From positions 1 to 57,983 of IMG/VR virus record IMGVR_UViG_3300045743_000846: DNA of 57,983 nt; one strand, written 5' to 3'. The notes beneath the pieces are model-generated. The model was not told where the DNA came from. It made no database searches and saw only the letters and a list, made by a program, of their open reading frames with translations. A program made the translations under genes and the position numbers. Position 1 is the first letter of the stretch, and each line of letters opens with the position of its first letter. Positions 1 through 57,983 of this stretch are shown in pieces. Source of the DNA: a virus (Duplodnaviria > Caudoviricetes).

Positions 1-1344
1 ATGAATTTTGATGCCCGTACCGCCAAGTCCCTGCCCGCTGGCCAATCCCTTACTTTCCCTGCCTACCCCGGCTTACGCTTTGCAGCAGGCAAGAAATCCC
101 GAAGCTGGATTTATCGCTACAAAAGCCCGATTGATGACATCATGCGCCAGATCAAGATTGGTGCATGGCCTGCCAAGTCTTGGGAAGGTGCGGTGGTGGA
201 ATGGGAGAAACTGCGCGCCATCCGGCAAAATGATCGTGACCCGGCACTGGAGCAACGCGAACAGCGCACCATCAAGAAACAGAAGGAGAAACAACAGGCG
301 GTAGAAACCCAAGCCGCCACCTATACACTTGGCATGCTGATCCAAGACTATTTGACCGGTCACGTTGAGCGCAACCGCCAAGCAAGTAGTGCCAAAAACA
401 TGCGCCATTTGCTGGAATCGATTCCAGCCGACATCGCCAAGTTACCAGCAGCAGGCATCACCCGCAAACAGGCGTTTGACTTGATTTCGGCCCGGGCCGA
501 TACTCCGGTTGCGGCGCAAACCCTGCGCCAGGAATTGGCAGCAGCGTGGAATTATGGCTTGGATGCCGAACTCTTGCCAGAAACCACGCCCAACTGGTGG
601 CAACGCGTGCTCAAGGGCAAACTCAAGAGTCAGGGCAGGAAGATTAACGGCAAGAACATCGGCGCACAAAAGCGCGTGCTGTCAGAAGCAGAGATTGCCA
701 AGCTCATGTTGTGGCTGCCGAATTTTAATTCCCGTAAAATCAGCGACATCCTAACGCTGTATTTATGGACTGGCACCCGTGGCGGGGAAATTGTGGCAAT
801 GGAAGCCAAGGAAATCACGCAAGAGAATGGTCAATGGTGGTGGACGATTCCCAAGCATAAAACCAAGAACGCGCGCCATGCCGGAGCCACGGATTTACGC
901 GTACCGCTGTTTGGTCGGGCCGAGCGGATTGTGCGGCAACGCTTGGAGACGAATCCCACCGGCTTCCTGTTTGCATCGAAGCGCACCATCAAAACAGGTC
1001 ACTTCAGCCAAAGCAGCATCGGCGATGCGGTGAACTTTCATCAGCCCTATTGCCAAAAAGTCCCGACACAAGCACGGCCACGGCTGGAAGTGGTCTATTG
1101 GGCACCGCATGACCTGCGCCGCACCACCCGCACGCTATTGGCGGCAATTGGCTGCCCGGATGCCGTGGCCGAATCGATTCTTGGCCACATGCAAACCGGA
1201 ATTATCGGCATCTACAACCGCTATGCCTATGACAAGGAACGGGTGGAATGGTTGCGCAAACTGAGCGAGAAGCTGGAGCAAATCATTGCAGACGAATCGG
1301 CGGCACAGTCTGAAACCGTGGCAGACTTCTTGCTGGCGGCTTAG
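1..1344 (+). CDS. int: Tyrosine recombinase / P4-like integrase with N-terminal arm-binding domain
   Basis: N-terminal GLRF..GKKSRSWIYRY..IKIGAWP arm-binding pattern; catalytic motifs TGTRGGE, HDLRRT, LGH and IYNRY are all intact. Confidence 0.95.
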   Translation: MNFDARTAKSLPAGQSLTFPAYPGLRFAAGKKSRSWIYRYKSPIDDIMRQIKIGAWPAKSWEGAVVEWEKLRAIRQNDRDPALEQREQRTIKKQKEKQQAVETQAATYTLGMLIQDYLTGHVERNRQASSAKNMRHLLESIPADIAKLPAAGITRKQAFDLISARADTPVAAQTLRQELAAAWNYGLDAELLPETTPNWWQRVLKGKLKSQGRKINGKNIGAQKRVLSEAEIAKLMLWLPNFNSRKISDILTLYLWTGTRGGEIVAMEAKEITQENGQWWWTIPKHKTKNARHAGATDLRVPLFGRAERIVRQRLETNPTGFLFASKRTIKTGHFSQSSIGDAVNFHQPYCQKVPTQARPRLEVVYWAPHDLRRTTRTLLAAIGCPDAVAESILGHMQTGIIGIYNRYAYDKERVEWLRKLSEKLEQIIADESAAQSETVADFLLAA

Positions 1345-1607
1345 TTCTTGTTGTTGGCGCGCCCGCTACTGCTACGCCCGCCGCTACCACGCCGCCCGCC
1401 GGTATTCGGCGGCGGCGGCAAATCCGACACCGGGCGCTGTTCGCTCCATTCCACCAATTCCCGATACAGCCACGCCACCCGATGCGGTGATATTTGCCGT
1501 GGCTTGGGGAATTGGCCATCGCGCACCAAGCGCTGAATCGTGGCCGGGGCCAGTGCAATCACTTCTGGCAACCCGGCCAAATCAATATACAGCGGTTTGC
1601 TTGCCAT
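1341..1607 (-). CDS. alpA: AlpA-family HTH excisionase / regulator
   Basis: LAPATIQRLVRDGQFPKPRQISPHRVAW is the AlpA signature; convergent with int, stop codons overlap. Confidence 0.9.
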   Translation of the reverse strand: MASKPLYIDLAGLPEVIALAPATIQRLVRDGQFPKPRQISPHRVAWLYRELVEWSEQRPVSDLPPPPNTGGRRGSGGRSSSGRANNKN

Positions 1608-1714: not shown

Positions 1715-2686
1715 CTAATTCACCACATGCATCGCAGCGCGCCTGCCCTCGGGCGAGCTTTCATAGTCGGCCAGCATTTGATCGTCGGTCGCGCCATCGG
1801 TGATGTCGGTCAGCACATCCTGCACTTCCGGGGTTAAGCGGGTGATTTTGTCGATCAGGGTCAGCACTTCGGGAGAAAAGTGGTCGGTAAATTCGATTTG
1901 GTCATAGATCAAATCTTCACAGGCATCATACAATTCGATGGCATCTTGCCGTGCCCATTCCATGCGTTGCAGGTCGGCTTGGCGTTGTTCATCATCGAGC
2001 AATTGATCGACCATGACCTTACCAAACCACACGATTCCCGCCAGCGGCAAATCCAGCCAGCGCCAATCAATGTGGGTTGGCATGGAAAACGCTGCCAAGC
2101 CACCCAGCAGCAAGGCCACGACCAGCGCGGCATAAGCGCATCGGTCATGCCGCGTGGTGGGCAACGCCTTGCGCGGATCAGCTTTAAGCATGCCCTGCGA
2201 AACATAGCCATGCGGGCCAAACACCGGCCATCCGGCAAAAGCGCTGCCATCGTCTGTGGTGCCGGGCCACAGCAAGCGCACGACCTTGGCAAACAGAATG
2301 GCAGAATTGAACGCTTGCCAGGCATCAGGCGCTTGATGCAGGCAGGCCATGGCCAGGCCAAACAGTTGAATCAGGCTGTCATAAAATGCCAAATCCAGCA
2401 TATCGCGCACCAGATCACCCTTGCCCCAGTTTCTGAGCAAGATCAGCCACAGCACGGAAAAAAGCAACAACATGCCATGGCGTAGCGGTTCGCTGGTGGC
2501 GTAGTGCGCTATGTAGTCGGTGGCAAGATTCTGGCCAATGGCGATAAACACCGCTCCCAGGGCCAGACGCTGAAACAGTTCATGAGACAAGGCGGTTTTG
2601 CCGGGTAGGCGTGGCAGACGTGGCAGACGCAACAAAGCAATAACGGTGGTAAAGGCGGTGGCAAAGGCGGTGGCAAGGGCGTGCAT
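1715..2686 (-). CDS. Multi-pass membrane protein with C-terminal coiled coil / helical hook; paralogue of 55089..55937
   Basis: About 6 hydrophobic segments; motifs RDMLDLAFYD, RLLW and WPVFGPHG are shared with the 55089 protein; acidic cytoplasmic tail. Confidence 0.8.
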   Translation of the reverse strand: MHALATAFATAFTTVIALLRLPRLPRLPGKTALSHELFQRLALGAVFIAIGQNLATDYIAHYATSEPLRHGMLLLFSVLWLILLRNWGKGDLVRDMLDLAFYDSLIQLFGLAMACLHQAPDAWQAFNSAILFAKVVRLLWPGTTDDGSAFAGWPVFGPHGYVSQGMLKADPRKALPTTRHDRCAYAALVVALLLGGLAAFSMPTHIDWRWLDLPLAGIVWFGKVMVDQLLDDEQRQADLQRMEWARQDAIELYDACEDLIYDQIEFTDHFSPEVLTLIDKITRLTPEVQDVLTDITDGATDDQMLADYESSPEGRRAAMHVVN

Positions 2687-2716: not shown

Positions 2717-2725
2717 ATTATATCA
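2717..2725 (-). promoter_or_regulatory. Extended -10 promoter for the membrane protein gene
   Basis: Minus strand TGaTATAAT between the repressor stop (2740) and the ATG at 2686. Confidence 0.5.
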
Positions 2726-2739
2726 AGCAAAAGACTTTT

Positions 2740-3540
2740 TTACCCTGCATTCGCTACATTAATTTCTTGCGAGTAATTATCAGTCGAATCAGACGGGATG
2801 GCGGCGCGTAAAATGGCGCGTTGCACGGCTGGCGTGCTGGTGCGATATTGGGCCACCAAGCGCAATTCGAGCCGGGTGCAACCGGTGTCGCTGTCGATTT
2901 CATCATCATCGGGTAGCACATTGGCACAGTGGGCCGCATGGCGCACCACCCGTTGCAGGCCGGGTTTGAGTCCCCGGAAGCCGAGCAACAGCCGTTGTTC
3001 ATCGATGGCAAATGCCGTCAGATCGATATCCGGTGCCGCTGCCACGCGCAAGGGCAAGCGTTCATTGACCGCACGGCAAAACTGCTGCGCCAATTCTTCA
3101 ATCGTCTCTTCATCGGCAATCCGCATCACGCGCACAATCTTGCGCAAGGCGTTTTGTGTGGCCGGGTCGGCAGAACGGTAGCCATCGAGCAGGCTTTGTT
3201 CCACCGGATCAAGCGTGGTGGCAGGCGATGTAGCAGCCACGGGCGCATTGCTTGCCATGGCTGCGCCCATAGTCGCACCCAAATTCGCCCCCAAATCGGC
3301 CCCCAAATTCGCCCCCATAAACCCCTGATCAAAATACATCGGCGGCAGGTTAAGCGTGGCTTCCAGCTTGCGCGCCACCCCCTCACCAAAATTGCGACCT
3401 TCGCGGAAAGTGCCGGACAGCAATTGCGAAGTGCGGGCTTCGGTGCATTCTGCCGCTTCGGAAAAGCGCGGGCGACTGCCGCCAAACTGGTGGGCAATCA
3501 GGTCGTTCAAGCGTTGGCGGCGGTGTGCATGTATGTCCAT
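2740..3540 (-). CDS. CI-like XRE/HTH prophage repressor lacking an S24 peptidase domain; three C-terminal helical-hairpin repeats
   Basis: N-terminal RRQRLNDLIAHQFGGSRPRFSEA..RTSQLLSG..RNFGEGVARKLEATLNLPPMYFD is typical of betaproteobacterial phage repressors. It is divergent from the replication genes. Start at ATG 3540 preferred, 6 nt after a TGgTTTAAT -10 (possibly leaderless). Confidence 0.8.
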   Translation of the reverse strand: MDIHAHRRQRLNDLIAHQFGGSRPRFSEAAECTEARTSQLLSGTFREGRNFGEGVARKLEATLNLPPMYFDQGFMGANLGADLGANLGATMGAAMASNAPVAATSPATTLDPVEQSLLDGYRSADPATQNALRKIVRVMRIADEETIEELAQQFCRAVNERLPLRVAAAPDIDLTAFAIDEQRLLLGFRGLKPGLQRVVRHAAHCANVLPDDDEIDSDTGCTRLELRLVAQYRTSTPAVQRAILRAAIPSDSTDNYSQEINVANAG

Positions 3541-29627: not shown

Positions 29628-29907
29628 GGCATCAAATATCTGTTCAGGATTTAAAATTGTGGCAAGTATCCAACCGTAGGCTATATGTCTAACGTGTATG
29701 TGATCAGGCGGGTCTTGACACAAACCTTTTTCAGTTTTTCGCATACAACCTAGCGCGCATCTCAACGATGCTAAGCGGCAATTGGTTAATGTTGGGGGAG
29801 CCAAAATCCGCTTAGCAAGCGGAAAAGAGTAAAATTGAAAAATAATTTATTTAATATTTTTATAGTAAATTTTAAAACCAATAAATTAACTTTGCGTTGT
29901 TTTACGG

Positions 29908-29957
29908 AAAATCCCCCAATTTCACAGGTATGTCGCAGTGTGAAGATTGGGGTTTTT
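29908..29957. terminator. Long hairpin, possible bidirectional terminator
   Basis: aaaatcccccaat-ttcaca...tgtgaa-g-attggggttttt downstream of the 30028 gene. Confidence 0.55.
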
Positions 29958-30027
29958 CAACGTCATTCTAATCCGATGAAACAACATTCCAAAATAGCTG
30001 GCTAATCGGATAGGCGAGGCAAAACTT

Positions 30028-31413: not shown

Positions 31414-32051
31414 CAACAAAATTCCAAGATTTTTCCAAACCAAACTTACCATGCCATCCGTCCCCAACCCAAGGAGAACCGGATGCCCAATTTCACCTCA
31501 TCGCCCCACTTTCACCACCTGCTGCACTCCCTGCCAGTGGCCCCGGTAGTGGCCGCCCTTGGCGCGCAACCGCACCTGTTCGGCCAACACCCTGACCGCG
31601 CCCGCGCCCCCAACTCGCCCCACCGCGAAGCGACGGACATCTGGCTACGCTACAACGACTACCGCAATCTTGGCCCCACCTTTAACGATGAACACGATTC
31701 GGTGTGGTATCCCGCCTGGTATGCGCTGCCCGAACTGGCCCCGCTGGTGTTTGGCCTGATGCACGAAGTGCAAGGCGAACGGCTGGGCGGCATTCTGATC
31801 ACCAAACTGCCACCCGGTGGCCAAATCGCCCGCCACACCGACCACAGTTGGCACGCCCGCTACTACGACAAGTTTTACATCGCCCTGCAAAACGCCCCCG
31901 GCAGCGTGTTTTCTTTCCCCGATGGCGACATCCACGCCCAAGCCGGGGATTGCTATTGGTTCGACAACAGCGTGCCGCACAGCGTCCACAACCAGTCCGG
32001 GCAAGACCGGCTTGCCCTCATCGTCTGCATTAAAACCGACCTGTTCAAGGA
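31414..32051 (+). repeat. Direct repeat copy 2 (~640 bp)
   Basis: Matches 28827..29464 at an offset of 2587 bp. Confidence 0.95.
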
Positions 32052-32067
32052 CACACCCCATGCTTGA
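31483..32067 (+). CDS. Aspartyl/asparaginyl beta-hydroxylase-like 2OG-Fe(II) oxygenase
   Basis: LPPGGQIARHTD (HxD), YWFDNSVPHSV.N (distal His), DRLALIVCI (2OG-binding Arg). Confidence 0.88.
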   Translation: MPNFTSSPHFHHLLHSLPVAPVVAALGAQPHLFGQHPDRARAPNSPHREATDIWLRYNDYRNLGPTFNDEHDSVWYPAWYALPELAPLVFGLMHEVQGERLGGILITKLPPGGQIARHTDHSWHARYYDKFYIALQNAPGSVFSFPDGDIHAQAGDCYWFDNSVPHSVHNQSGQDRLALIVCIKTDLFKDTPHA

Positions 32068-46848: not shown

Positions 46849-47193
46849 TTATGCCGGGTTGGCCGCTGGTTGTACCTCTAACCCGTCACGCGAACCGTGT
46901 TGTTCTTCCCACACCACCACCCAGTACGGGGCGCGTCCGCGTCCTGTCCATTGCAAGTCTGACTTTTCTGGATGGCGGTAGCGCACCGCCACCGGATTGG
47001 CCGATTTGACCCGCCCCGAACCGGTGGTCAGACCGCCCAACACCGTTTCAAGCGGTACGCCGACTTGCTGGACAATCGCCAGTATCTGCTGCCGTGCATC
47101 GTTGATTGCTTGTTGTTGCTTACGCGGCAATTCGGCTTGTACTTGCTTTTGCAGGGCTTGCAGTTCAAGAAGGGTCATATTGGATAAATCCAT
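46849..47193 (-). CDS. hns: H-NS family nucleoid protein
   Basis: VRYRHPE..QWTGRGRAPYW DNA-binding motif; N-terminal coiled coil; AAGGA RBS. Confidence 0.93.
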   Translation of the reverse strand: MDLSNMTLLELQALQKQVQAELPRKQQQAINDARQQILAIVQQVGVPLETVLGGLTTGSGRVKSANPVAVRYRHPEKSDLQWTGRGRAPYWVVVWEEQHGSRDGLEVQPAANPA

Positions 47194-47267
47194 GGTGTTT
47201 TTCCTTTAAGGGTGGGTAAAAAAGTGGAATGCGATGCGGCACGGCGATTTGGCTTGCCACTGCGATG

Positions 47268-47984
47268 CTATTTTACTGGCTTGCCACGCTTGGCCAAGGC
47301 CACGCGCAGAATTTGGCTGATATCGGGGCGGCCCATGCTCTTGGCCAAACCAAGCGTATCCCATTTGCTGGGGTCAAGCCCGGCATCGAGCGCATGTTGC
47401 AATTTGGCAGTGTTGCCGTGTTCGATGACGGTTTGCAATAAGTCGGCATCATGAAAACCGGTGACGCTGCTTTGTTGCAGCAGAAAATCAAACACCGGCA
47501 AGGCAACATCGGCTTGCGCGGCACGGGTGAGCAAAATTTCGGACAGGGTTAATTCGGGCGGGTTGGCGCGGCGGCATGGCAGGCGCAGCAAACCGGCATC
47601 GTCCAATACGGTCAGCTTTGCCAGCACTTCGGTAGGCAGGCCGGACAGTTGCGCCAATAAGAAGGTTTTGGCTTGATCCTGATGCGGGCCATTGCTGGGC
47701 CATTGTTGCCGCAATTGTGGCGCGAGCCGCGCGCGGATCAGGGAAGCAATTGCGCCCTTGGGATTGGCCCACTGGCTGCCGGGCTGCTGCAATAGATCGT
47801 CCAGCCGTGTCCAGTCGAGCCGTTCTTGTCCGATGGGGGGTAACAGTGGTAGCGCGGGCATCGGGCTTGGGCCGGGGTGCGGTGGTTGGTTTTGATGGGC
47901 GTGGCTGATGGCCGGAGCAAGCCGCACGCCCATGGCCAGCAAAAGGGTAGTCAGACAGATAAGAAGTGGCAGGGAACGGCGCAT
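47268..47984 (-). CDS. Exported protein with ankyrin-like C-terminus
   Basis: Signal peptide MRRSLPLLICLTTLLLAMG; LLQTVIEHGNTAKLQHALDAGLDP..LGLAKSMGRPDISQIL. Confidence 0.6.
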   Translation of the reverse strand: MRRSLPLLICLTTLLLAMGVRLAPAISHAHQNQPPHPGPSPMPALPLLPPIGQERLDWTRLDDLLQQPGSQWANPKGAIASLIRARLAPQLRQQWPSNGPHQDQAKTFLLAQLSGLPTEVLAKLTVLDDAGLLRLPCRRANPPELTLSEILLTRAAQADVALPVFDFLLQQSSVTGFHDADLLQTVIEHGNTAKLQHALDAGLDPSKWDTLGLAKSMGRPDISQILRVALAKRGKPVK

Positions 47985-48044
47985 GGTCAGTCCTTGAGCA
48001 AAACGGTAAGGGATGAGCGTTGGAAGGGGCGGGTGTTCACAAGG

Positions 48045-48722
48045 CTACCGTTGCGAGCGCGGTGCGCTGGGGGCTTTCATGTCACGCATCTCGATGCAGA
48101 TATCGGCGATGTCCCTCAGTTCAAACGGTGCATGGCGACCGGTCAAGAGCACGGTGAGCTGTGGCGGGCGTTGCTGCAAACCGCGTAGCACGGCATCGAT
48201 ATTCAGGTAATTGTGATGCAGCATCAGGTTGATGTCGTCCAGAATGAGCATGGCCAAATCAGGTTGGTGCATTTTTTCTGTGGCGTATTGCCACGCGTGC
48301 CGGATTAAATCGGTATCCTGCATGCGGTCTTGCTTGTTCCAGGTGCAGCCCCGGCCAAAGGTCTCAAAAACGCACTGCGCATGCTGCCCCAAAAACTGGC
48401 GCGCCGGGCTGTTTTGTGGGGTATCCAGAAATTGCACTACCGCCAGTGGTCGGTTTTGCGCCAATACCGCCATGCCCATGCCGAAAGCGGTGTTCGATTT
48501 GCCCAGTCCATCGCCTGTGAGAACGATGATTTGGCCCGTGGCGGGATTCGCTGCGGCGGTAGCGGGTTGTGGCCTGACCGGGTTTTCCGGGTTGGTGGGC
48601 AGGCTGGCGCGTGGCGCTGGCACTAATTTCTGTTGCCACCGCTGTTGCCATTGGTACTGGCGCTGGGTGTGTTCTTGCATTTCGTTTGGCGGGGTTGTGC
48701 TTGGTTCGGCCAAGGCGGACAT
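48045..48722 (-). CDS. cobO: Degenerate cob(I)alamin adenosyltransferase (CobO/BtuR/CobA-like)
   Basis: GQIIVLTGDGLGKSNTAFG, VVQF, G.GCTW, LILDD and LLTGRHAP..ADICIEM align to CobO, with motif substitutions and no C-terminal tail. Confidence 0.8.
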   Translation of the reverse strand: MSALAEPSTTPPNEMQEHTQRQYQWQQRWQQKLVPAPRASLPTNPENPVRPQPATAAANPATGQIIVLTGDGLGKSNTAFGMGMAVLAQNRPLAVVQFLDTPQNSPARQFLGQHAQCVFETFGRGCTWNKQDRMQDTDLIRHAWQYATEKMHQPDLAMLILDDINLMLHHNYLNIDAVLRGLQQRPPQLTVLLTGRHAPFELRDIADICIEMRDMKAPSAPRSQR

Positions 48723-48844
48723 CGTTATCTCCTTAGAATGGGTGATCTTTATCGGTTTTGCGCAAGGTTTGGGCTAACCGGTTCATAGTGGGTTGTCTTC
48801 AAAAAAATGGGGAAGGTTGGCCGATTGAGGCACCGCTGCCCAAT

Positions 48845-50515
48845 TCACACGGGCTTTTTTTGCCAACTTCCCCCCGGCACCACACCGGTTCCGGGAACCG
48901 GATTGGTGCCAAATGCCCGCCATACTGCACGGGCGGTGCTACCAGCATCGCTATCGCTACCACTGCTACTACCACTACCACTGCTACTGCTACTACCACT
49001 GCCACTGCTACTACCACTGCTACTACCACTGCCACTGCTACTACTACCACTGCTACTACCACTGCCACTGCTACTACTACCACTGCTACTACTTCCTCTG
49101 CTGCTACTGCTTCTACTGCCACTGTTGCCGCCACCGCTCTCCGGTGGGCTGTTGCCCGCATCTGCCGCGTGGCGTGGTGGGGCATAGTCGGCCAACAACA
49201 GGCTATATTCGTTTGCGGCCAGGTTATCGTTGCCTACCCTGTGCAAATACGGGTGTTGGCCTTGCACCTGACTGGCTTGCCATGCGCGTTTGATGGAGTG
49301 GGCGTCGTAGCGAGGTGGGGCAATGCCCGCACCGAGCAGAGCCGGGATGCGCGGATGGATGAAGGCCACCTGTTTGGCGGTGTTTTGGCCGCGCAACAGC
49401 AGGATCAGGGGCTGTGGGGCAGACTGCCCCTGTTGGCGCGGCAGTTCGATCACGGTATCGAGTTGCTGGTGCTGCACCACATAGCGCCAGAGTACTTGGG
49501 CGTCGGGATCGTGGATCAGGTTTTGTGGCACCACCAGCGCCATGCGCCCGTTTTCGGCAAGGCTGGCCAGCATGTGCCAGATCAGCGCGATTCTGGCATC
49601 TTGCGGAACTTGTACCGGGAAGCGTTGCCAAGTATCAAAGCGGGCAAAGGCATAATCCCATTCGGTGGCTTGCTCGGGCAATTGGCACAGGATCAGGTCA
49701 CTTTTTAATAGTTGTGCGGTTTCGACAGGGCTGCCGGGGGAGTGGATCAGGCTGTTCAGGAGTGGCGCGGTCAGGGTGTCGCCGCGCTGGAGTTGGTGAT
49801 AATCGATTTCTTTGGCCAGCAGGTACAGGGCGGCGCACGCCCATTGGTCGGGGTCGGTGGTTTGGCCACGCAGGCGCAGTAAATGGGTGCGGTTGTGGGC
49901 TTCGACATAGGCTAATACGGCAAACAGCAGTTGACCGGTGCCAAAGGCGGGGTCATATACGCTGTTTCTGCGCAGCGGGGCCAACAAGGTTGCGATGAGT
50001 TTAGCCAGATGGGCGGGCAACGGGTGGGCTTTGGGTAGCAGGTGTGCCATGGCTTGCTGGTAGACGGTTCCGGCGGACAGAAAGGGGGTGGCGGGGATGC
50101 TGCCGAGCAGTTGCATGATGTCGGCCCAAATGCTGTTATCGGCAAAGAGTGCTGCCCATGGGGCATCCGGCCCGAAGCGTTCGGGCCGAAAGATACGGTC
50201 AAGCTGCGGTTGTTGCTGACACAGGGTAAACAGGCTTTGGTGAATCGCGCTGCCAGCGTCATCTTGCCGCCATTGGCAGGCATCGAACAGGCATTCGGGC
50301 GAAAACGGAATCGGGATGGCACTGAGCATATCGGCCACGACGCTGGTTTGCCCGGCGCATTGGCCGGATACGAGTTTGCTTTCTACCCGGTAACGCACCG
50401 AGAGTTGTTGCCACATCAGAAGCGTGACTAATAAATCAGCTCCGATGGTTTGCGGCAAGCCAACCGGCAGGCGCTTTTGGGCTTGATCGAGTTGGATCAG
50501 AAAGGCGCTCATCAC
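48845..50515 (-). CDS. Type I R-M M-subunit (HsdM)-like protein lacking catalytic NPPF; Gly/Ser tail
   Basis: SVYDPAFGTGQLL, RGQ, RGDTLTAP, GRMALVVP, VIELP and ANEYSL; motif IV reads SDLILCQLPE. Confidence 0.8.
   Translation of the reverse strand: MMSAFLIQLDQAQKRLPVGLPQTIGADLLVTLLMWQQLSVRYRVESKLVSGQCAGQTSVVADMLSAIPIPFSPECLFDACQWRQDDAGSAIHQSLFTLCQQQPQLDRIFRPERFGPDAPWAALFADNSIWADIMQLLGSIPATPFLSAGTVYQQAMAHLLPKAHPLPAHLAKLIATLLAPLRRNSVYDPAFGTGQLLFAVLAYVEAHNRTHLLRLRGQTTDPDQWACAALYLLAKEIDYHQLQRGDTLTAPLLNSLIHSPGSPVETAQLLKSDLILCQLPEQATEWDYAFARFDTWQRFPVQVPQDARIALIWHMLASLAENGRMALVVPQNLIHDPDAQVLWRYVVQHQQLDTVIELPRQQGQSAPQPLILLLRGQNTAKQVAFIHPRIPALLGAGIAPPRYDAHSIKRAWQASQVQGQHPYLHRVGNDNLAANEYSLLLADYAPPRHAADAGNSPPESGGGNSGSRSSSSRGSSSSGSSSSGSGSSSGSSSSGSGSSSGSSSGSGSSSSSGSGSSSGSDSDAGSTARAVWRAFGTNPVPGTGVVPGGSWQKKPV
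48950..49125. repeat. Trinucleotide-based microsatellite (acc/act/gct) encoding a GSSS linker on the minus strand
   Basis: Repeated accactgctact units. Confidence 0.9.
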
Positions 50516-52038
50516 AGGTTGTCCAAAGGTTGTTGGTTGGCGGCGGGATAGTCGCGCCAGTTCAGGCTGTACTGCTGGTGGGCGATGCTGCTATGGCTAA
50601 TCGTGCGCACGTTGGGGTGGCTGTGGCGCGATTGGATGGCGTACCAGGCATGCAAGATGGTTTTGGCATCGTAACGGGCCGGGTAATCCGGTTGCGACAG
50701 ATCGGGCTGAATATCGGGCTGAATATCGGAATGGATATCGGCATGAATATCGGGCTGAAGGTCGGGGTCACGGGTCAGATCGGCATCCGGGTCAGCCGCA
50801 ATCGGCGCATTGGTAGAGCCGCTCTGGTTTGGGTTTGACTGAGCCGGAACAATGAAGCTAACGTGCCGCCTTTGGGCTTGTTTGATGCAGATCAGCAGCA
50901 GCAGCGCGCCATCCTGCCTCCAGGGTAACAGCGAGGGCGGCAGATCGATTACGGCAGATAACCCGTTTCTTAGCAGGTATTGCACCAAGGGTTGGGCGCG
51001 GGTATCGGCCAGCACGCTGGCGGGCACGATCAGGGCAATGCGGGCGTTGTGCGGGCGGGCGCAGGCGATGGCGTGCCAGATGTGCGCCAGTTCGGGCGTC
51101 TCGGGCAGGCCATGCGGAAAGCGCTGGGCAAAGATGCCAGCGGCAGCGGGTAAGCGCTCGGGTGTTGATCTTGCGACATGTGCCGCCGTGGCTGAATCTG
51201 GCCCGATGGCGCTTAGGACGATATCGGCGCTACGCAGTGCCTGTAGTGGTGGCATGGTTAGCGGCGCATCCAAAAAGCGGCCCCGGCTCAGGTTGGCGGG
51301 CGGGTAGCCATGGGCCAACAGGCGCAGCTTGGCGAGCGCGAGCTGTTCCGGGTTGGGGTCTTGGCCATACAGGTTCAGACTGGCTTGCACCGGTTCCCCG
51401 GCGCTTTGGGTGGTTTGCGCCAGTTGGGTGGCGCAGGCCATGAGTAAATCCCCTTGACCGCACAGCGGGTCAAGAATGGTTTCATGCGGAAACACTTGTA
51501 CCAGTTGCGCCGCCAGTTGTGCCAGCCGGGGCGGTGCGCCGTCTTCCTGCAAGCCAAGCTGTAGCATGGCGCGCTCCACCAGTGGCCCAAGTGGCATTTT
51601 GGGTTGATACCGGATAGCACCGAGTATGGTCATCAGGCTGGCCAGCACCGGGGTGGCGAACAGTTGGGCGGCAAATTCGCTTTGGTAGCCGAAGCGTTCC
51701 GGCAGCAGGATATCGTTCAGTGCGTGGTCGGGCTGCGCTGCCATCCAGCCATACAGGCTGGTGCGAATTGCGTTGCCGAATTGGCGTAGATCGGGACTGT
51801 GGCAGGCGCTAAACAGGCAGTCGGGGTGAAATTGTAGGGTGCTGGCCAGTGTGGCGGGTGTGCTGTGGCTTGGGGTGGGCCGGTGTTGCCAGGCATCGGA
51901 CAGGCATTTCCACACCAGCAAGGTCAGGATCATTGCACCGCTGGTGGCGCGCGGCATGGCTTTGGGCATCAGGTTTTGGGCTTCTTTGAGCCGGGTCAGT
52001 ATCGGTTGCATGGGTTGCATGGGTTGCGTGGTTGGCAT
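50512..52038 (-). CDS. Type I R-M M-subunit (HsdM)-like protein lacking catalytic NPPF
   Basis: HsdM_N-like ILTLLVWKCLSD; TILDPLCGQGDLL, LYGQD, ARIALIVP, AVIDLPPSL and QYSLN; motif IV reads ADIVLSAIGP; stop overlaps the next start. Start could be TTG 52062. Confidence 0.8.
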   Translation of the reverse strand: MPTTQPMQPMQPILTRLKEAQNLMPKAMPRATSGAMILTLLVWKCLSDAWQHRPTPSHSTPATLASTLQFHPDCLFSACHSPDLRQFGNAIRTSLYGWMAAQPDHALNDILLPERFGYQSEFAAQLFATPVLASLMTILGAIRYQPKMPLGPLVERAMLQLGLQEDGAPPRLAQLAAQLVQVFPHETILDPLCGQGDLLMACATQLAQTTQSAGEPVQASLNLYGQDPNPEQLALAKLRLLAHGYPPANLSRGRFLDAPLTMPPLQALRSADIVLSAIGPDSATAAHVARSTPERLPAAAGIFAQRFPHGLPETPELAHIWHAIACARPHNARIALIVPASVLADTRAQPLVQYLLRNGLSAVIDLPPSLLPWRQDGALLLLICIKQAQRRHVSFIVPAQSNPNQSGSTNAPIAADPDADLTRDPDLQPDIHADIHSDIQPDIQPDLSQPDYPARYDAKTILHAWYAIQSRHSHPNVRTISHSSIAHQQYSLNWRDYPAANQQPLDNL

Positions 52039-52199
52039 GAGTTGGCCGGGCGGTGATGTCAATCGGGTTCAAAAAAATGGGGGTGACGACGTGGACAGTT
52101 TGGCACGGCCAGTTTGGCACGGCACACCAAGCAGGCCATTCTGTTCGCCATCCCCCCATCAAACCTTGTCGTAGAGGAGACTAAGGATCGGTTGCCGGG

Positions 52200-52670
52200 T
52201 TAATTGGCCAATGGTGGTGGATGGGCAGCGGTGGACAGTGGTAAACCGTGTTCGTTCAGCATCGCTTGCAACAGTTCACCCAAGGCGCTTTGCTCGCGCC
52301 ACAGGGCGGCGCGGGCGCTGACCAGACCATCGAGTTCGGCCAGGGCGGTTTCGTGCTCGCTGCGGCCGGGGGTGGTTTCGGAGAGGTCAAGGGTTTTTTG
52401 CCACATTTCCTGATCCATGCTGGCCAGTTCCACGCTGCCATCGCGTTGTCTTGTCAATACTTCGAGCAAGGCGGTAAAACCGGTGGGAATCGGGTCGCCA
52501 GACGCTACGGCAAAGATGCTGCGGCACGCTGATGTAAAGGCAGAGAAACGCGGTTCCGTGCCAGTCAGACGTTGGTATTCCTGCTCTATCTGCCGCGCCA
52601 ATTTTGCAGATTGCGCGGTGAGGGCTTTGTGTATGAGTTGCAAGTCTATAAAGCTCGGTTGCTTGTTCAT
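52200..52670 (-). CDS. Hypothetical helical protein upstream of the HsdM-like pair
   Basis: ATG 52670 (MNKQPSF) after AAGG; amphipathic helices; the frame is open further upstream. Confidence 0.6.
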   Translation of the reverse strand: MNKQPSFIDLQLIHKALTAQSAKLARQIEQEYQRLTGTEPRFSAFTSACRSIFAVASGDPIPTGFTALLEVLTRQRDGSVELASMDQEMWQKTLDLSETTPGRSEHETALAELDGLVSARAALWREQSALGELLQAMLNEHGLPLSTAAHPPPLAN

Positions 52671-53590
52671 CGCGGTGCCTTGATCGTTCGGGGTTGGCTG
52701 GTACGGTCGGGTGATAAGGGGAGCGGGAACCGGTGGCGGTGGGCTAACTGGAGAGATAGATTTTTGCCACCGGCCCCGCTTTGCTACGCTTGGTAAGGCT
52801 GCTGATTGGGCAGCCTTGTTAATCAGGGGCACGGGTTGTGGCCAAGGCTGCGGCGCGCCCGTTTCAGGTAGCACAGCAAGCGGGCCGCTTGGTAACGCAT
52901 GGTGCGGCAGTGGGTTAGCACGCCGGACAGTTTCAGGGCCATGCCCCGGTAACGCGGGCGGGCCATGGCGGCGGGGGCGTGGTGCCGGGCCGCTGCGCGC
53001 CGGGGTTGCGAGTGCTGGCCGGGGCTGTGGGCCGGGCGATGGCTGGCCGGATGTGACCGGCCCATGTGGCGTGGGTGGTGCGTGGTGGCATGTTGCAATG
53101 TATGTTTCTGGTTAAGCATTTTTCAATCTCGGTAGTTTGGTTTGAACTGTGTTCATTAACGCTTGTGGCGCGGCCCCTGTGGTATGCCTTGGCTAGCTGC
53201 TTCGGGCAATGGGGTATTGCAAATGTTTCAAGTTATGGGACGGGTGCAAGGGCTTACTGACCCATGGTGTAAGCTTTCGGCCCTTGCCACCGTCGATGCA
53301 ACCATTTCCCTTACACTGCCATGCAGGTACGATTTGTTCTGCGTGGCAGATACATTTGTGCGTGGGTTTTTGAATGCACCAGGTACTAGCATACCGGCAA
53401 AAAGAGTCATACGCAACACGGAAATTAAATAAATTTCGACAAATGACACTTTTATCGCACCGAGAACGCTTTTTCCGAGGAAAACGCCGGTTAACTTAGA
53501 ATTTTTTGGCGACTGTTGAAAGATATGACTCATTGTGCAATAATTGCGACCTATTGCCAGACATCCTGTTTATCTCCCCGACATGACCAC

Positions 53591-54055
53591 ATGAATGATG
53601 CGCCCGTGCCAACCGACCAAGCACATCGGATTAAAGTAGAGCGGAAACGGCTGGGCAAGACCCAAGACCAAATCGCGGCATTGTGTGGCGCATCACGCGA
53701 AATGTGGGGGCGCTACGAACGGGGTGCATTTCCGATGCCGGGCAGTGTTTTTCGAGCTTTTGTGGCAGAGGGAGCGAATGCCGATTTTCTGAGGACGGGA
53801 ACCCATGCGCAGGCGTTGACGATGCAGCTAGCGCAGGAAAAGGAAAGCACTGCCGAGGCAACAGGTGCTGCATTTGCCCTGTTGCAGGCTGCATTGGCAA
53901 TCGGCACGCACATTGCGCAGTATGGCAATGATGCCCCGCTGGCATTGACGACAGCCGAGTATGCATTGGTGTTGGCGTACCGCGTGGCGAGCGTTGCACG
54001 CAAGGCTGATTTTCACGATCTGGTGGTGGCGCAAACCGAAAAAAAGAGGGATTAA
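53591..54055 (+). CDS. XRE-family HTH regulator (paralogue 1)
   Basis: RIKVERKRLGKTQDQIAALCGASREMWGRYERG..FLRTG; C-terminal LTTAEYALVLAYRVAS. Confidence 0.88.
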   Translation: MNDAPVPTDQAHRIKVERKRLGKTQDQIAALCGASREMWGRYERGAFPMPGSVFRAFVAEGANADFLRTGTHAQALTMQLAQEKESTAEATGAAFALLQAALAIGTHIAQYGNDAPLALTTAEYALVLAYRVASVARKADFHDLVVAQTEKKRD

Positions 54056-54211
54056 TGTGATATTTTTTTGAATACCTCTGAAGAAGCACAACCCGATTCG
54101 ATTTTAGGCGCGTCATTTGTTGTATTTTTGATTTTTTATGGTTTGCTAGGCAAAAACCTTGTTTCATACGGCGTGTTGTGGAATAATTCGCTACCTATTA
54201 CACTGTGGCAC

Positions 54212-54781
54212 ATGACTTCGTATACGACAATGAGAGAATCGCTTATTCCTGCCGACCTGACCCATCGGCTCAAAGTAGAACGCAAGCGGCTTGGCAAAAG
54301 TCAGGGCGAAATGGCTGATATGTGCGGCTCCTCGCGGGAAATGTGGGGCAGATATGAACGCGGCACTTATCCTATTTCGGAAGGCGTGTTGCGTGCATTC
54401 ATTGATTGCGGGGCCGATGCCACGTATTTAAGTACCGGCACCCGAGCAACCACCGTGCCGAAGCCACCGCTTGCGCGGGCAGTGCCGGAGGCGCAGCAAT
54501 CCACCATTACCCTGCCTGCCGCCACCGTGGTCGACATCGGCGCGGCCAATGCCAATACGCCCAACAACGGCATGTCTGCCCAAGCTGTGGACATGGCGTT
54601 TCAGGTATTGCATGCCGCGCTGACAGGTGGCCAGCACGCAGGCCAAGCGGACGGCGGCACGCTGCTTCGGGTTTCCCCCGCTGAACACGAACTGGTCATG
54701 GCCTACCGGCAAGCCAGTCTGGATCGCAAGGAGGTTTTTCATGATTTGGTCTTCGCGCAGAAACGCAGGGCAGCACTATGA
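54212..54781 (+). CDS. XRE-family HTH regulator (paralogue 2)
   Basis: RLKVERKRLGKSQGEMADMCGSSREMWGRYERG..YLSTG; C-terminal VSPAEHELVMAYRQAS; start 54212 or 54230. Confidence 0.88.
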   Translation: MTSYTTMRESLIPADLTHRLKVERKRLGKSQGEMADMCGSSREMWGRYERGTYPISEGVLRAFIDCGADATYLSTGTRATTVPKPPLARAVPEAQQSTITLPAATVVDIGAANANTPNNGMSAQAVDMAFQVLHAALTGGQHAGQADGGTLLRVSPAEHELVMAYRQASLDRKEVFHDLVFAQKRRAAL

Positions 54782-54791
54782 AGCACGAATT

Positions 54792-54819
54792 TTGCACGGC
54801 TGAACCTATCCGATATAAT
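54792..54819 (+). promoter_or_regulatory. Sigma70-type promoter for the peptide and membrane protein genes
   Basis: TTGCAC (54792-54797), 16 nt, TATAAT (54814-54819). Confidence 0.65.
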
Positions 54820-54851
54820 ACTCGCTCTGCCCACCACCTTGCGAGGATATT

Positions 54852-55019
54852 ATGTTTGATTTGCCCATTACCCCCGATGCTGTTTTGCCAGTTTCGCTTG
54901 ATCCCGCTGTTACATCCGGTGGCCCTTACCCGCCGCCGCCACCTAAATTTGCTTTTTTGCCGGTTTCGCTTGACCCCAATATCACACCAGGCTACCCGCT
55001 CCCGCCGCCGCCCAAATAA
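54852..55019 (+). CDS. 55-aa proline-rich two-repeat peptide (below the ORF-track cutoff)
   Basis: GAGGA RBS then MFDLPITPDAV-LPVSLDPAVTSGGPYPPPPPK-FAF-LPVSLDPNITPGYPLPPPPK-stop (translated by hand). Confidence 0.75.
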   Translation: MFDLPITPDAVLPVSLDPAVTSGGPYPPPPPKFAFLPVSLDPNITPGYPLPPPPK

Positions 55020-55088
55020 CCCGTCCGTTGGCAACCCGGTGACAGCGCTAGCAAGTAGCCACCCGTTAAACCGTTGCGCGGGGGCACA

Positions 55089-55937
55089 ATGACCGCGCCA
55101 ATCACCCCACCCAAAGTCACGTTAACGGATCGGGTCTTATGTTGGGTTGCCGTTATTTCTATTCAGCTATTGGTTACCTCGCAAGTATTTGGAAACTTCC
55201 CCAATAATCATATGATTTTGGTGGCGAAAGCAGCTATTGAAGTGCTGTCCATTTTACTGTTTTTCCGGATTAACGCGGGTGAGGTCGGGCGCGATCTGAT
55301 TGATTTGTCGCTGTATGAGTTGGCCGTTGAATTGTTGGTGCTATGGGCCTATTTTTTTTCGCCAACAATTTATAAGGTGGCGGCTGATGGGCTGGCGCTT
55401 ATTGTTTCAAACATGTTTTTCTTGGGCGCATTGGGGCGGTTGCTCTGGTGCAGTTTTCATAACGGGCGTTATGCATTGGCCGAATGGCCTGTTATCGGCC
55501 CCTACGGCATTGTATGGCGGCGCAAGTACACCGCCAGCGTCACGGGTGTGCCCGCTTATTTCCGGGTGGTGGCCACACTGATCATTTCGGCGGAAATTGC
55601 CGCCATTTTCTTACCCGCCGATTTTGGCATTTATCAGGCATTACCGGCGTGCATTGGCATGGTGTTGCTATGGCAATTCGCCCGCCCGGTGCGGCAGGAA
55701 GTGGTGGCCACCGTACAAGACGTGAACGAGCAGGCCGACAGGATTGACCAACTTGAAGACATCATCGAACTTGCCGGAAGAAAACTTCGCCCGGATTTGT
55801 TTGAATTCATGCCGCCGCGCGGGGATGTGCCGCCACCGCCAGCCGAAAAAACCAATGCCACCGTCACACCGCTACGCGTGGTGCCGCGCGAACCAGAACC
55901 GCCGAATGAGGGCGACAAGCCGGATAACAGTGGCTAA
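55089..55937 (+). CDS. Multi-pass membrane protein with C-terminal coiled coil; paralogue of 1715..2686
   Basis: ~6 TM; RDLIDLSLYE, RLLW and WPVIGPYG motifs; ATG 55089 after GGGGG. Confidence 0.8.
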   Translation: MTAPITPPKVTLTDRVLCWVAVISIQLLVTSQVFGNFPNNHMILVAKAAIEVLSILLFFRINAGEVGRDLIDLSLYELAVELLVLWAYFFSPTIYKVAADGLALIVSNMFFLGALGRLLWCSFHNGRYALAEWPVIGPYGIVWRRKYTASVTGVPAYFRVVATLIISAEIAAIFLPADFGIYQALPACIGMVLLWQFARPVRQEVVATVQDVNEQADRIDQLEDIIELAGRKLRPDLFEFMPPRGDVPPPPAEKTNATVTPLRVVPREPEPPNEGDKPDNSG

Positions 55938-56007: not shown

Positions 56008-56277
56008 TTAGCTGACGCGATTGGTATTACCCACAGTCGCCATTAACTTCGCGCCACAACTGGTCTTGTGTCCATCCAGCGCCACCGGTTTGCCATTGAT
56101 CAACCAATTGCCATCACCTTCGGCAATCACGCAATGGTTGTGCCCCGGTAGCGGGCAACTGCATTTATCACCGACACAGGCCAGTGCCTTACCCATCAGG
56201 TTGGTTTGACTTTGCGCGGTTTGTACCGCACCGCCATGGCTAGTTGGGTCGCCCAAGCGAATCGGGGCCACCATCAA
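56008..56277 (-). CDS. PAAR domain protein (T6SS spike tip)
   Basis: IRLGDPTSHGG..GDKCSCP..GH..INGKPVALDGHKTSCGAKL. Confidence 0.93.
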   Translation of the reverse strand: MMVAPIRLGDPTSHGGAVQTAQSQTNLMGKALACVGDKCSCPLPGHNHCVIAEGDGNWLINGKPVALDGHKTSCGAKLMATVGNTNRVS

Positions 56278-57983
56278 TTTTCCCCTTGCGCTGCGTCATG
56301 CGCAATCAGCGTCCAACTTGCGCCAACTTGTACCAGTTCCGGCGCGCCCGCTACCTTTTGCAGCAGGCTACGATTTTGCTGGATTTGGATGTACGGCAAG
56401 GCTTGCCCTTGGCGCAGCGGGTGGTCGGCACCATATCTTGCATCGGCTGGAGTGCAACGCCAGATGCCGCTTTGTGGACAGGTTTGGCCGGTATTGAGCG
56501 TGGTGCCGAGTGGCACGGCTGGGGCCATGGCCGATAAGGCCGGGATGGCCATTTCAAGCGGTATGGTCGCATCCGGGTCGAAATTATCGGGCAGTGGCTG
56601 GCCGGGGGTAGCGGCTACGCTGGCCGGTTCTACGTTTGCCAGTATGGCTGGTTCGGGCACGGTGGGAATATCACTTAGCACCGGGGCCAGGCCAAAATCA
56701 ATCGGATCACCCGCCGGATGTTTGCGTTTGTCATTGCCGGGGCTGATCACGGTAATGGTGGCTTGGTTTGGATCACGCAAATTGACGGCAACAGACGGGT
56801 TCTTGTTGCGGTAGCTGGCAATCAAGCCCAAATTCCACATCACGAACGGGGATGCAGCACCGGTTTCACCGAGACGGCGATGGATGTTGTAGCCGTTCTT
56901 CGGGTCAAACATATCAAAATGTGGGTCGTTCAGGTGCAGGTTCAGGGACAGCGGCACCACGGCCTTGCCATGGGATGCGTCACCATGGTCGTAGAAGATG
57001 CGCGCCTGTTTTTGCCCTTCCGGTAAGACGCCGAGTGCTGTTTTCCAACCGGCCTGAAATGCCAATTGTTTGTCGTGGTCGCTCATCAAGGTCTTTTTGA
57101 GTTTCGGCTCAAGCGTTGGGTGGCCGTCTTTGTCCTTCATGTAGGTCACGGTAACGGGCCGGTGCAAAATGCCGATGGTGGGCAGGTCGTCAAATTGTTT
57201 GATTTGCCAATCCAGCCAAGTTTCGGGCATGAATTCCGATGGTTTAAAGGGGGGCTTGCCCTTTGGATTGACTTCGTTGTAGGCGTTTGGCCCCTTGCTG
57301 GCGCGCACATATGGGCGCATGGCTTCGATGCGGTCGCGCCGGGCGAGTAGGATGGAGGCGATGCTTTCGGTGGGGTCGCCTTGTTTGTGGTAGCCTTCCG
57401 GGGTGCCGTTCCAGTCACGCACTGCGATGAGCAGGACGGGAACTTCAGGATGGTATTCAAAGAACTGGAATGCACTTTCCAAGACACTTTCCGGCAAGTC
57501 ACTGTATATCGGCTTTCTTATTTGCTTGGTTTGGTGTCCATGCAATCCGGCAGGTTGAAATATGGTGCCAATCCAATCGTAGTCGTCATTTCCTGGGCGT
57601 GTGCGCGTTTCAATCCGTCTGGTTGGCATCACATACACGTTGGGTATTACCCAACCTGCGGTAAAGTAACGGACACAATGCTCAATCGAGTCCGCTTCAC
57701 GTTGCCTGCTAATCAAGCCACGATAAGTGGCGTCCCAATAATAGAATTTTTGATCTTGTGGGACGATGGATTTGTCGCCCGCTTCATCCATCTTGCGCAG
57801 GGCGGTAGATTGCCTGAAATGTTCGATCGAGAGGCCAAGGCCAAGGACATCGAGCGTTTGCAGTCGTTTTTCAGCGGGTATCGTCATTTTTTTTTCGCTT
57901 AATTGGGTTGACAAATCAGTGGCTTGTACCGTCGTGATCAAGAAACCAATCAGGGCGATGATTACCGGATAGAATATTTTCAT
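56274..57983 (-). CDS. T6SS lipase-adaptor Tla3 / DUF2875-like protein
   Basis: FQFFEYHPEVP, W..WQIKQFDDLPTIGILHRP and RRLGETGAASPF..LGLIASY motifs; C-terminal TGQTCPQSGIW; overlaps the PAAR start. Confidence 0.75.
   Translation of the reverse strand: MKIFYPVIIALIGFLITTVQATDLSTQLSEKKMTIPAEKRLQTLDVLGLGLSIEHFRQSTALRKMDEAGDKSIVPQDQKFYYWDATYRGLISRQREADSIEHCVRYFTAGWVIPNVYVMPTRRIETRTRPGNDDYDWIGTIFQPAGLHGHQTKQIRKPIYSDLPESVLESAFQFFEYHPEVPVLLIAVRDWNGTPEGYHKQGDPTESIASILLARRDRIEAMRPYVRASKGPNAYNEVNPKGKPPFKPSEFMPETWLDWQIKQFDDLPTIGILHRPVTVTYMKDKDGHPTLEPKLKKTLMSDHDKQLAFQAGWKTALGVLPEGQKQARIFYDHGDASHGKAVVPLSLNLHLNDPHFDMFDPKNGYNIHRRLGETGAASPFVMWNLGLIASYRNKNPSVAVNLRDPNQATITVISPGNDKRKHPAGDPIDFGLAPVLSDIPTVPEPAILANVEPASVAATPGQPLPDNFDPDATIPLEMAIPALSAMAPAVPLGTTLNTGQTCPQSGIWRCTPADARYGADHPLRQGQALPYIQIQQNRSLLQKVAGAPELVQVGASWTLIAHDAAQGEN

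Follow-up and report, generated by a model that had tools for sequence, protein, structure and literature searches.

The window analysed here, a 57,983-base IMG/VR provirus record (IMGVR_UViG_3300045743_000846), holds two copies of a conserved gene cassette made up of R, a repressor of the XRE/CI type, P, a small polyproline open reading frame (ORF) that is missing from the second copy, and S, a kinase-less protein of sensor type with six transmembrane (TM) helices. The first copy, at 53.6-55.9 kb, comprises two helix-turn-helix (HTH) regulator genes, XRE1 (53591..54055, + strand, 154 aa) and XRE2 (54230..54781, +, 183 aa), followed by P (54852..55019, +, 55 aa) and the membrane protein S_A (55089..55937, +, 282 aa). 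The second lies in the immunity region and comprises the repressor-like protein RepB (2740..3540, -, 266 aa) and the membrane protein S_B (1715..2686, -, 323 aa). The analysis shows the family relationship of the membrane proteins, their architecture and topology, the sequence motifs of the parts and a conserved neighbourhood.

An original prediction, made from the letters of the window, had proposed a membrane receptor or anti-repressor that couples an envelope or peptide signal to XRE repressors. It is quite possible, in our judgement, that S is a membrane-anchored sensor acting directly on the adjacent repressor, probably by delivering it to ClpXP; that ClpX is the partner of the S tail is a possible but somewhat doubtful part of this proposal. 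From the features described below we infer that S touches R and tethers ClpX, which way the effect runs and what kind of signal is sensed.

The membrane domain and its kinase relatives

S_A and S_B match no family in Pfam, PHROGs, NCBIfam or PADLOC; no known, unrelated family claims them, and it is to histidine kinases that profile searching leads. The two belong to one hidden Markov model (HMM) family (BLASTP 31% identity over 91 aa, E 2e-8), as the original prediction had held, and the same record search recovers both genes. In a word-based search of 5.8 billion proteins, S_A had two matches from outside the window, at 85% and 28% identity, and S_B had none. A family profile made from the two window proteins and these two relatives was read against 1.84 billion cluster representatives, 70 of which matched at E <= 1e-3 and 30 at E <= 1e-10.

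Among these 70 representatives, 23 are longer than 376 aa and thus of kinase length. HATPase_c was found in all ten of the long members scanned and HisKA in three of them, with HATPase_c present in 7 of the first 40 family members, and 21 of 25 kinase-length relatives carry an H[DE]hxxP box. The kinase-fused relatives are recovered over profile positions ~14-240, and in their alignment the common domain is N-terminal and is followed by a long Ala-rich helix, the H-box and the ATPase. Kinase-fused and kinase-less forms share not only the TM domain but also the beginning of the long helix, and the family alignment has invariant columns D, Y, K, R, W, WP, G and G. On the strength of these alignments, the TM domain of S is the input domain of a rare family of histidine kinases, a result that bears out the earlier description of S as a membrane protein of sensor type. 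S_A and S_B are nonetheless not histidine kinases, despite their kinase-family input domain: neither has HisKA or HATPase_c in Pfam, nor an H[DE]hxxP box.

Two types can be distinguished within the family. A-type proteins, including S_A, carry the motif WPxIGxxG and are kinase-less only, whilst B-type proteins, including S_B, carry WPVFGxxG and occur in both kinase-less and kinase-fused forms. The kinase-less B-type proteins lie nearer to the kinases than to the A-type (for S_B, E 1.4e-20 against P0028 and 1.6e-6 against S_A) and this, together with the TM domain and helix start that the two forms have in common, would suit a kinase-less decoy that uses the common membrane domain and helix to pair with a same-family histidine kinase of the host, whose pathway it then rewires, the adjacent XRE genes serving only to regulate expression of S. 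We think this improbable, since the kinases are very rare (23 kinase-length representatives among 1.84 billion) and few hosts would have a matching one, no kinase of the S family was found in any of the loci read (L004, L005, L006, L007 and L057, described below), and a decoy leaves the conserved tail motif and hairpin of these proteins unexplained.

The original prediction had counted about six TM segments, and the AlphaFold2 model of S_A (predicted local distance difference test, pLDDT, 87.3; predicted template modelling score, pTM, 0.77) has six TM helices, a beta hairpin and one long helix. The model of S_B (pLDDT 83.6) has an S_A-like layout plus a two-helix hairpin at residues 272-310. 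In both models a short beta hairpin and a helix lie between TM4 and TM5, and TM6 extends as a cytoplasmic helix of ~40-60 residues. Foldseek gave no fold match at E <= 0.001 in the PDB (best E 0.17) or among the viral predicted structures of BFVD (best E 0.11), and the ESM Atlas gave no usable match.

Lysine and arginine residues are confined to the N-terminus, loop 2 and loop 4, the other three loops being 1-10 residues long and free of basic residues, and this placement puts both ends of S in the cytoplasm. R15, R68, D69, Y76, R117, W120, W133, P134, G137 and G140 are conserved, and nearly all of the conserved residues face the cytoplasm or the inner leaflet. With its conserved face turned towards the cytoplasm and outer loops of no more than 10 residues, S has an intramembrane or cytoplasm-facing sensing domain and is not an envelope receptor. 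For the same reasons, and with P lacking a signal sequence, the envelope or extracellular peptide signal of the original prediction is unlikely.

Few S genes could be placed in a genomic context. Profile scans with the TM family gave no match in viral or genome contigs or, with the first alignment, in metagenome contigs, nor did tblastn of S_B against phage and plasmid collections, and scans with a second, B-type alignment and with a RepB alignment returned the same two viral records again, with no new loci.

Tail, regulator and neighbourhood

In the kinase-less members the position of the kinase is taken by a long helix and then by a disordered tail rich in proline and acidic residues. In S_A the TM domain occupies ~55089-55688, the helix runs to ~55808 and the tail, disordered in the AlphaFold2 model, follows at 55809-55934. 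Near the end of the tail lies a short motif, TPLRVVPREP in S_A (PLRVVP at 55869-55886) and RPALVW, VPALKIV, RPNLTIVP or PPALRLIK in relatives, and several kinase-less members end at the very C-terminus in KLTRIK, KLKRIK or KLTVIK, as SspB does. The product of E. coli sspB, read from an annotated genome, ends ...DDEPPQPPRGGRPALRVVK / ...PPRGGRPALRVVK (RGGRPALRVVK). Its last 12 residues are the same in 109 of 121 close relatives, but all 121 are enterobacterial and hence yield no broad consensus; PF04386 is present in all of the SspB relatives examined. By its sequence, then, the S tail looks as if it had a ClpX-tethering (XB) motif like that at the terminus of SspB, a point that the original prediction had not considered. 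The XB peptide is described as a C-terminal fragment of SspB that the dimeric zinc-binding domain of ClpX binds wherever it is placed in a chain, and tethering through it as able to cause degradation of the bound protein (PMC12373786).

The strict form of the motif, [LM][RKTHQ][VILM][VI], occurs within the last 50 aa of 23 of 48 kinase-less members, as against 1.5 ± 1.3 in shuffled tails, these counts not being fully independent as the 48 tails include close cluster mates (P0002, P0072) and two proteins from the loci read. It is found in the last 50 aa of none of 25 kinase-length members. A broader form occurs in the last 45 aa of 33 of 46 kinase-less members (5.8 ± 2.2 in shuffled tails).

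B-type tails add a helical hairpin like that of the neighbouring regulators; in S_B this hairpin is encoded at 1787-1876 and the terminal RRAAMHVVN at 1718-1744. Alignment by hhalign of six B-type tails with twelve regulator hairpins gave 29 columns in the expected register (score 23.9, E 3.3e-5), whereas a column-shuffle control scored 7.4 ± 1.6 and reached the real score in none of 200 trials. A hairpin in the A-type tails was also considered and was dropped at an hhalign E of 0.32.

The regulators carry their hairpins C-terminally, each with the motif E-x-x-L-L-x-x-(Y/F)-R followed by a second helix (the 'YR' hairpin). XRE1 and XRE2 have one apiece (nt 53945-54037 and 54671-54763), as do the regulators of L006, L007 and L057, whilst RepB (nt 3121-3210, 2920-3009 and 2788-2877) and the repressors of L004 and L005 have three; a simple pattern finds at least one in 32 of 53 viral regulators of the same HTH type. 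The N-terminal HTH of XRE1 and XRE2 matches Pfam HTH_31 (E 5.8e-6 and 1.3e-8, respectively), so that the original call of two XRE genes stands, and the two proteins are 42% identical (E 8e-44), XRE2 being 64% identical to the L006 regulator. RepB matches no Pfam family, and for its HTH there is only a weak match to PHROG 5736, transcriptional regulator (E 0.0036). The repressor of L005 provides a bridge: its HTH is 46% identical to that of XRE2 over 65 aa (E 2e-15), its triple-hairpin domain 31% identical to the C-terminal domain of RepB over 154 aa (E 6e-15). Since this one protein joins an XRE2-like HTH to a RepB-like hairpin domain, the regulators of the two window copies belong together. 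A phmmer search of XRE2 and RepB against PDB sequences returned nothing below E 0.28.

No S24 or other peptidase family was detected in RepB, XRE1 or XRE2 at E <= 0.1, their C-termini consisting of YR hairpins instead. Having no Pfam match, RepB lacks a recognisable LexA-type self-cleaving domain; it needs, we infer, another route of inactivation, and the lack of a recognisable peptidase domain leaves room for one of the ClpXP type.

Two further observations concern XRE1 and XRE2. XRE2 (54764-54781) and its L006 homologue (L006 1730-1748) both end ...KRRAAL, which we take to resemble one class of C-terminal ClpX recognition signals (MuA ends ...RRKKAI). A 17-nucleotide (nt) element upstream of XRE1 (53431-53447) recurs, inverted, upstream of XRE2 (54112-54128); the two are 82% complementary and, on this evidence, may be operator sites.

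Our neighbourhood counts cover the eight S genes with readable surroundings, the remaining 60-odd family members, including all of the kinase-fused ones, falling outside them. All eight adjoin an HTH regulator with a C-terminal hairpin, across two phage types and two non-phage contigs, so the random gene neighbourhoods that would have spoken against the original prediction were not seen. Besides the two window genes (S_A with XRE1, XRE2 and P in a variable segment at the prophage end, S_B with RepB in an integrase-type prophage), L004 comes from a phage of the same type as the window and reads Rep, P, S, AlpA, int; L005 is Mu-like, with a transposase, ner and a divergent repressor, and reads R, P, S, as does L057, a second Mu-like phage. 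L006 is a metagenome contig with two S genes, the first in the order P (its end only, ...PPPNPPPKK, cut at the contig edge), S, then XRE, and the second in the order XRE, P, S. L007, also a metagenome contig, reads P, S, HTH gene. In the four phage loci, two integrase-type and two Mu-like, S follows the lysogeny repressor on the same strand. On L006 a Septu pair (PtuA E 4.6e-147, PtuB E 3.5e-45; 3783-5616, -) lies directly beside the two tandem P-S cassettes.

Coupling of the membrane protein to XRE repressors, as first proposed, thus finds partial support in the conserved neighbourhood and in the hairpin that B-type tails and regulators have in common, any binding of one part to another being putative. 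The same gene order could also be that of a protein expressed in the lysogen for some other purpose, such as superinfection exclusion, abortive infection or a RexB-like damping of host proteases, S sitting behind the repressor because that operon is on in lysogens and its XB-like tail serving to occupy or relocate ClpX or to set the turnover of S itself. The position of S in the four phage loci does mirror that of lambda cI-rexA-rexB, rexB being expressed in the lysogen and RexB reported to prevent degradation of the MazE antitoxin (PMC4255059), and the non-phage copies lie among genes of defence type (the Septu pair in L006, and two DNA methylase genes that adjoin the window's S_A copy). A TM domain common to histidine kinases, however, must signal to a cytoplasmic output, which would be unexpected of an exclusion pore; the hairpin common to B-type tails and regulators is given no role; and no PHROG or PADLOC family matches S_A, S_B or P. 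We consider a lysogen protein of this kind unlikely.

The polyproline ORF and how the cassette might work

P is preceded by GAGGA, 4 nt upstream of its ATG, and is built from a unit repeated in tandem (54878-54940 and 54950-55012), both repeats closing with PPPP(P)K. The 55-aa repeat peptide had been noticed earlier, and an in-frame duplication with 72-nt spacing is indeed present (63 nt at 76% identity), the two DNA copies of the repeated LPVSLDP stretch differing at synonymous sites only. P belongs to no family in Pfam, PHROGs, NCBIfam or PADLOC. It begins MFDLPITPD... and, by inspection, has no hydrophobic signal sequence.

The search for small Pro-rich ORFs near homologues, suggested in the original prediction, found them at seven of the eight S genes, upstream of S and on the same strand: in the window and, as relatives, in L004, L005, L006 (two), L007 and L057. 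Six are 39-56 codons long and the seventh is visible only at its end. At least three consecutive prolines stand near the end of all seven, and at least four in five of them. An alignment of the first six shows M..L..P..GVLPV, then 13-30 spacer residues that include a conserved Asp, then PPPP(P), whilst the seventh, in L057, reads MIEFVLSTPLGVLPIP...DPGSQTPPPPTR. Because the background rate of PPPP is low (0.11-0.29 per 1000 residues in six-frame translation of these sequences), a run of prolines that sits at the expected place, on the expected strand and in frame at five loci, together with PPPxPPP and PPPRP at two more, is far beyond chance.

Between XRE2 and P lies the promoter-like site described earlier as TTGCAC-N16-TATAAT (54792..54819, +; TTGCAC 54792-54797, TATAAT 54814-54819), which a promoter scan calls as TTTGCA-17-TATAAT with a 10/12 match; it is present as described, but since the region has four sites of this kind where shuffled sequence has 2.9 ± 1.6, the match gains little weight beyond its position. 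S_A starts at ATG 55089 rather than TTG 55074. In the second copy S_B does lie directly behind the repressor with its own -10-like site: the gap between the RepB stop and the S_B start is 53 nt and contains TGATATAAT at 2725-2717 (2717..2725, -), an extended -10-like site by sequence match only. The double layout claimed for the window therefore holds for the regulator, the promoter-like site and the membrane protein but not for the small ORF, which the second copy lacks. The N-terminal extension of S_B (2600-2650, -) holds a Pro-rich repeat, LPRLPRLPRLPG, where other loci have a separate polyproline ORF.

Polyproline stalls ribosomes that lack elongation factor P (EF-P), and P could be, rather than a ligand or partner, a translated leader whose proline run stalls ribosomes, depending on EF-P or the supply of proline, and in this way controls in cis whether S is translated or transcribed. 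Placement of the prolines near the end of all seven ORFs would suit such a role, as would the 23-70 nt that separate the P stop from the likely S start in five of the seven (in the second L006 cassette the distance of 52 nt rests on a chosen internal Met, and in L057 the start of S is uncertain, its ORF as called overlapping P and the favoured in-frame ATG lying ~55 nt past the P stop). Yet protein-level conservation is seen in the N-terminal part of P (M..L..P..GVLPV), and the window carries an in-frame duplication of the unit; the distance from proline run to S start varies widely; and six P-S intergenic stretches fold no better than shuffles (z -0.55 to +0.92), with no common pairing of the proline codons with the ribosome-binding site of S. 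An RNA structure coupling the proline codons to the S start was accordingly dropped as a candidate, and a leader function for P seems possible but on the whole unlikely. With no signal peptide in P and no structure in the P-S stretches, we favour a cytoplasmic peptide product, which may act on the conserved, aromatic-rich face of S.

If S acts on its repressor, as we propose, it would sense a signal within the membrane or at the cytoplasmic face, and the long helix would pass that signal on as in the kinase relatives. S would then act directly on the neighbouring repressor, which it would either retain and deliver to ClpXP or let go. A B-type tail could contact the repressor via the common hairpin, the A-type doing so by other means, and were the tail to tether ClpX, the stability of the repressor would follow the signal. 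The copy behind RepB would in this way set repressor stability and with it lysogeny maintenance or induction, whilst the copy at 53.6-55.9 kb would control whatever XRE1 and XRE2 repress. A bolder 'sensor-adaptor' version, in which S tethers ClpX and delivers the prophage repressor, the W120/W133/P134 face reads the level of P and P synthesis depends on EF-P and proline supply, would have the prophage read the translational state of its host for induction; this we regard as a long shot.

Several points weigh against the proposal that S acts directly on its neighbour. None of the results demonstrates that S touches R, ClpX or P. At 4-8 residues the XB-like motif is short, and the S_B version, AAMHVVN, is a weak match. 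As the A-type tails, including that of S_A, are without the hairpin, the argument for S-R contact rests on the B-type members. The RepB-S_B gap holds no small ORF, so the S_B copy has no P. Among 53 viral loci with the same HTH type, only two (L056, which is the same record as L005, and L057) have a strong S-family match within 4-kb flanks, a third having a weak one (E 2e-4) 2 kb from the regulator; this class of repressor therefore mostly works without S, and S is an add-on to a common repressor class rather than its constant partner. Finally, the copy at 53.6-55.9 kb lies outside the backbone that the window has in common with a related provirus, G001, and another contig swaps the segment that contains it; given this variable segment, a role for XRE1 and XRE2 as phage repressors is a candidate one and uncertain.

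In L042-L055 and other loci of the same HTH type, many phage repressors have behind them, with overlapping stop and start codons, a conserved ORF of ~325-350 aa for which a single TM segment is predicted; this looks like a different and commoner repressor-partner pairing.

The prophage setting and comparison with known systems

The left edge of the record holds an integrase gene (1..1344, +), so named from the reading of its translation and from its 74% identity (tblastx) to the integrase end of provirus G001. A gene for an AlpA-type DNA-binding protein (1341..1607, -; Pfam Phage_AlpA, E 3.2e-8) lies downstream of S_B on the same strand, an order of S and then AlpA-type gene that L004 repeats, and a DUF1376 replication gene (3841-5202, +) is divergent from RepB. 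Terminase, portal/adaptor, capsid, internal virion and tail genes occupy 7.4-25 kb. At the right end lie two type VI secretion genes, PAAR (56008-56277, -) and, at the very edge, that for the type VI lipase adaptor Tla3 (56274-57983, -), which are probably host flank.

Over the first ~52 kb of the window G001 runs collinear with it, but G001 has no match for 52-58 kb. A 6982-nt contig, from a sequencing run that is possibly that of the source sample, matches 51884-52002 and 56051-56206 and between these carries 4264 other bases in place of the 4048 of the window. The interval 52.0-56.05 kb, which begins after the last shared phage gene and extends to the PAAR gene, is thus a replaceable cassette. 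The prophage context of the original prediction accordingly stands for the S_B copy, in the immunity region; as the segment with the copy at 53.6-55.9 kb is absent from the collinear region of G001 and replaced in the other contig, the membership of that copy is uncertain. In run X1 the summed contig depth rises several-fold at 52136-52936 and 56141-56407, with many variant letters, and these flanks seem to be common to several related strains or elements of that sample.

The same exchange invites a narrower reading of the A-type cassettes (that of the window at 53.6-55.9 kb and those of L006 and L007) as stress-responsive regulators of defence or cargo genes in variable islands, unrelated to a prophage switch and comparable in role to the repressor-plus-sensor pairs that control immune operons. 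The replacement of 52.0-56.05 kb between conserved flanks, the absence of the segment from G001 and the two tandem cassettes next to Septu in L006 all accord with it. It concerns the target rather than the mechanism, however, and fits an S that acts on the adjacent XRE; the B-type copy and the two Mu-like phages put the cassette in the immunity region, and any regulated target gene is hypothetical. As an account of these cassettes we judge it rather unlikely.

Other features of the window can be noted briefly. A single 4024-aa ORF (34732-46806, +), part of which G001 keeps, contains an LPD37 'large polyvalent protein' domain (E 1.2e-55). The stretch 25000-31000 is low in GC (0.42-0.49 as against 0.55-0.62 elsewhere) and is likely to be inserted cargo, as G001 has almost no counterpart; an AbiTii-family gene lies within it (27554-28444, -), and Asp/Arg beta-hydroxylase cupin-like ORFs lie on either side (28896-29627 and 31483-32067, +). 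Near the prophage end, 46849-52062 (-) encodes a protein with an H-NS C-terminal domain, a corrinoid adenosyltransferase of the CobA/BtuR type, an unusual passenger for a phage, and two tandem N6 DNA methylases.

It is DNA damage that triggers most of the well-understood prophage switches, by way of RecA-dependent cleavage or of antirepressors under SOS control, and to our knowledge routes by which Gram-negative phages report membrane or physiological state are poorly known. The cassette offers a testable candidate: a repressor without a recognisable self-cleaving domain and, directly behind it in two unrelated phage types, a sensor-type protein with a protease-tethering-like end. Its membrane input domain is absent from domain libraries and occurs with either a kinase or a tail, so that two outputs can be compared directly, and the polyproline micro-protein is a conserved part that gene callers would miss. 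The rarity of the family limits its general importance. We found no description of such a sensor-repressor-polyproline system in open-access papers and preprints.

Of known systems, SspB, the ClpXP adaptor whose cargo includes RseA fragments and ssrA-tagged proteins, offers the closest parallel to the tail, combining a cargo-binding part with a disordered, acidic, Pro-rich linker and a C-terminal P-x-L-(R/K/T)-(V/I/L)-(V/I), although for S both cargo binding and ClpX binding are predictions only. S differs in lacking the SspB domain (PF04386 is not matched) and in being an integral membrane protein with a sensor-type domain. With the intramembrane-sensing histidine kinases of the DesK, LiaS and BceS types, S has in common a multi-helix input domain, minimal outer loops and a long signalling helix, and kinase-fused relatives exist; the window proteins, however, have neither H-box nor ATPase domain, and their TM domain has no Pfam or solved-fold match. 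The two S-bearing Mu-like phages place S after a c-type repressor gene divergent from ner; the stability of the Mu repressor is set by ClpXP, and we know of no S-like membrane protein in phage Mu itself.

Of the two systems to which the cassette had been likened, arbitrium (AimR-AimP-AimX) also ties a small peptide gene to the lysis-lysogeny region, but P has no signal peptide, neither a tetratricopeptide repeat (TPR) nor an AimR family occurs among the neighbouring proteins, and the candidate receptor is a membrane protein. The likeness to arbitrium and to BlaR/BlaI is only conceptual, the defining parts of both being absent (Pfam). Ribosome-arrest leaders such as SecM, MifM and the EF-P-dependent leaders resemble P in its arrest-prone proline run near the ORF end (seven of seven), but differ in that the six P-S stretches have no coupling mRNA structure. 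In lambda cI-rexA-rexB a polytopic inner-membrane protein is likewise encoded downstream of the repressor, and RexB is lysogen-expressed and reported to affect Clp-dependent proteolysis (PMC4255059). S has no sequence relation to it (no PHROG match) and no RexA-like partner, and carries instead a kinase-type sensor domain and a polyproline partner gene.

BlaR1/BlaI and MecR1/MecI likewise encode a membrane sensor beside its repressor, which BlaR1 and MecR1 inactivate by proteolysis and not by phosphotransfer; for S, proteolysis is a proposal. S has no penicillin-binding sensor and no M56 metalloprotease (Pfam), its outer loops do not exceed 10 residues and its sensor face is cytoplasmic or intramembrane, and any proteolysis would be outsourced to ClpXP. 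Lacking the defining domains of each, the cassette belongs to neither the BlaR1/BlaI nor the SspB class. We propose that it is, in kind, a membrane sensor that controls a repressor by proteolysis or sequestration, built from new parts in the form of an undescribed input domain, a putative protease-tethering tail and a conserved polyproline micro-protein, which, if true, would be a new design principle.

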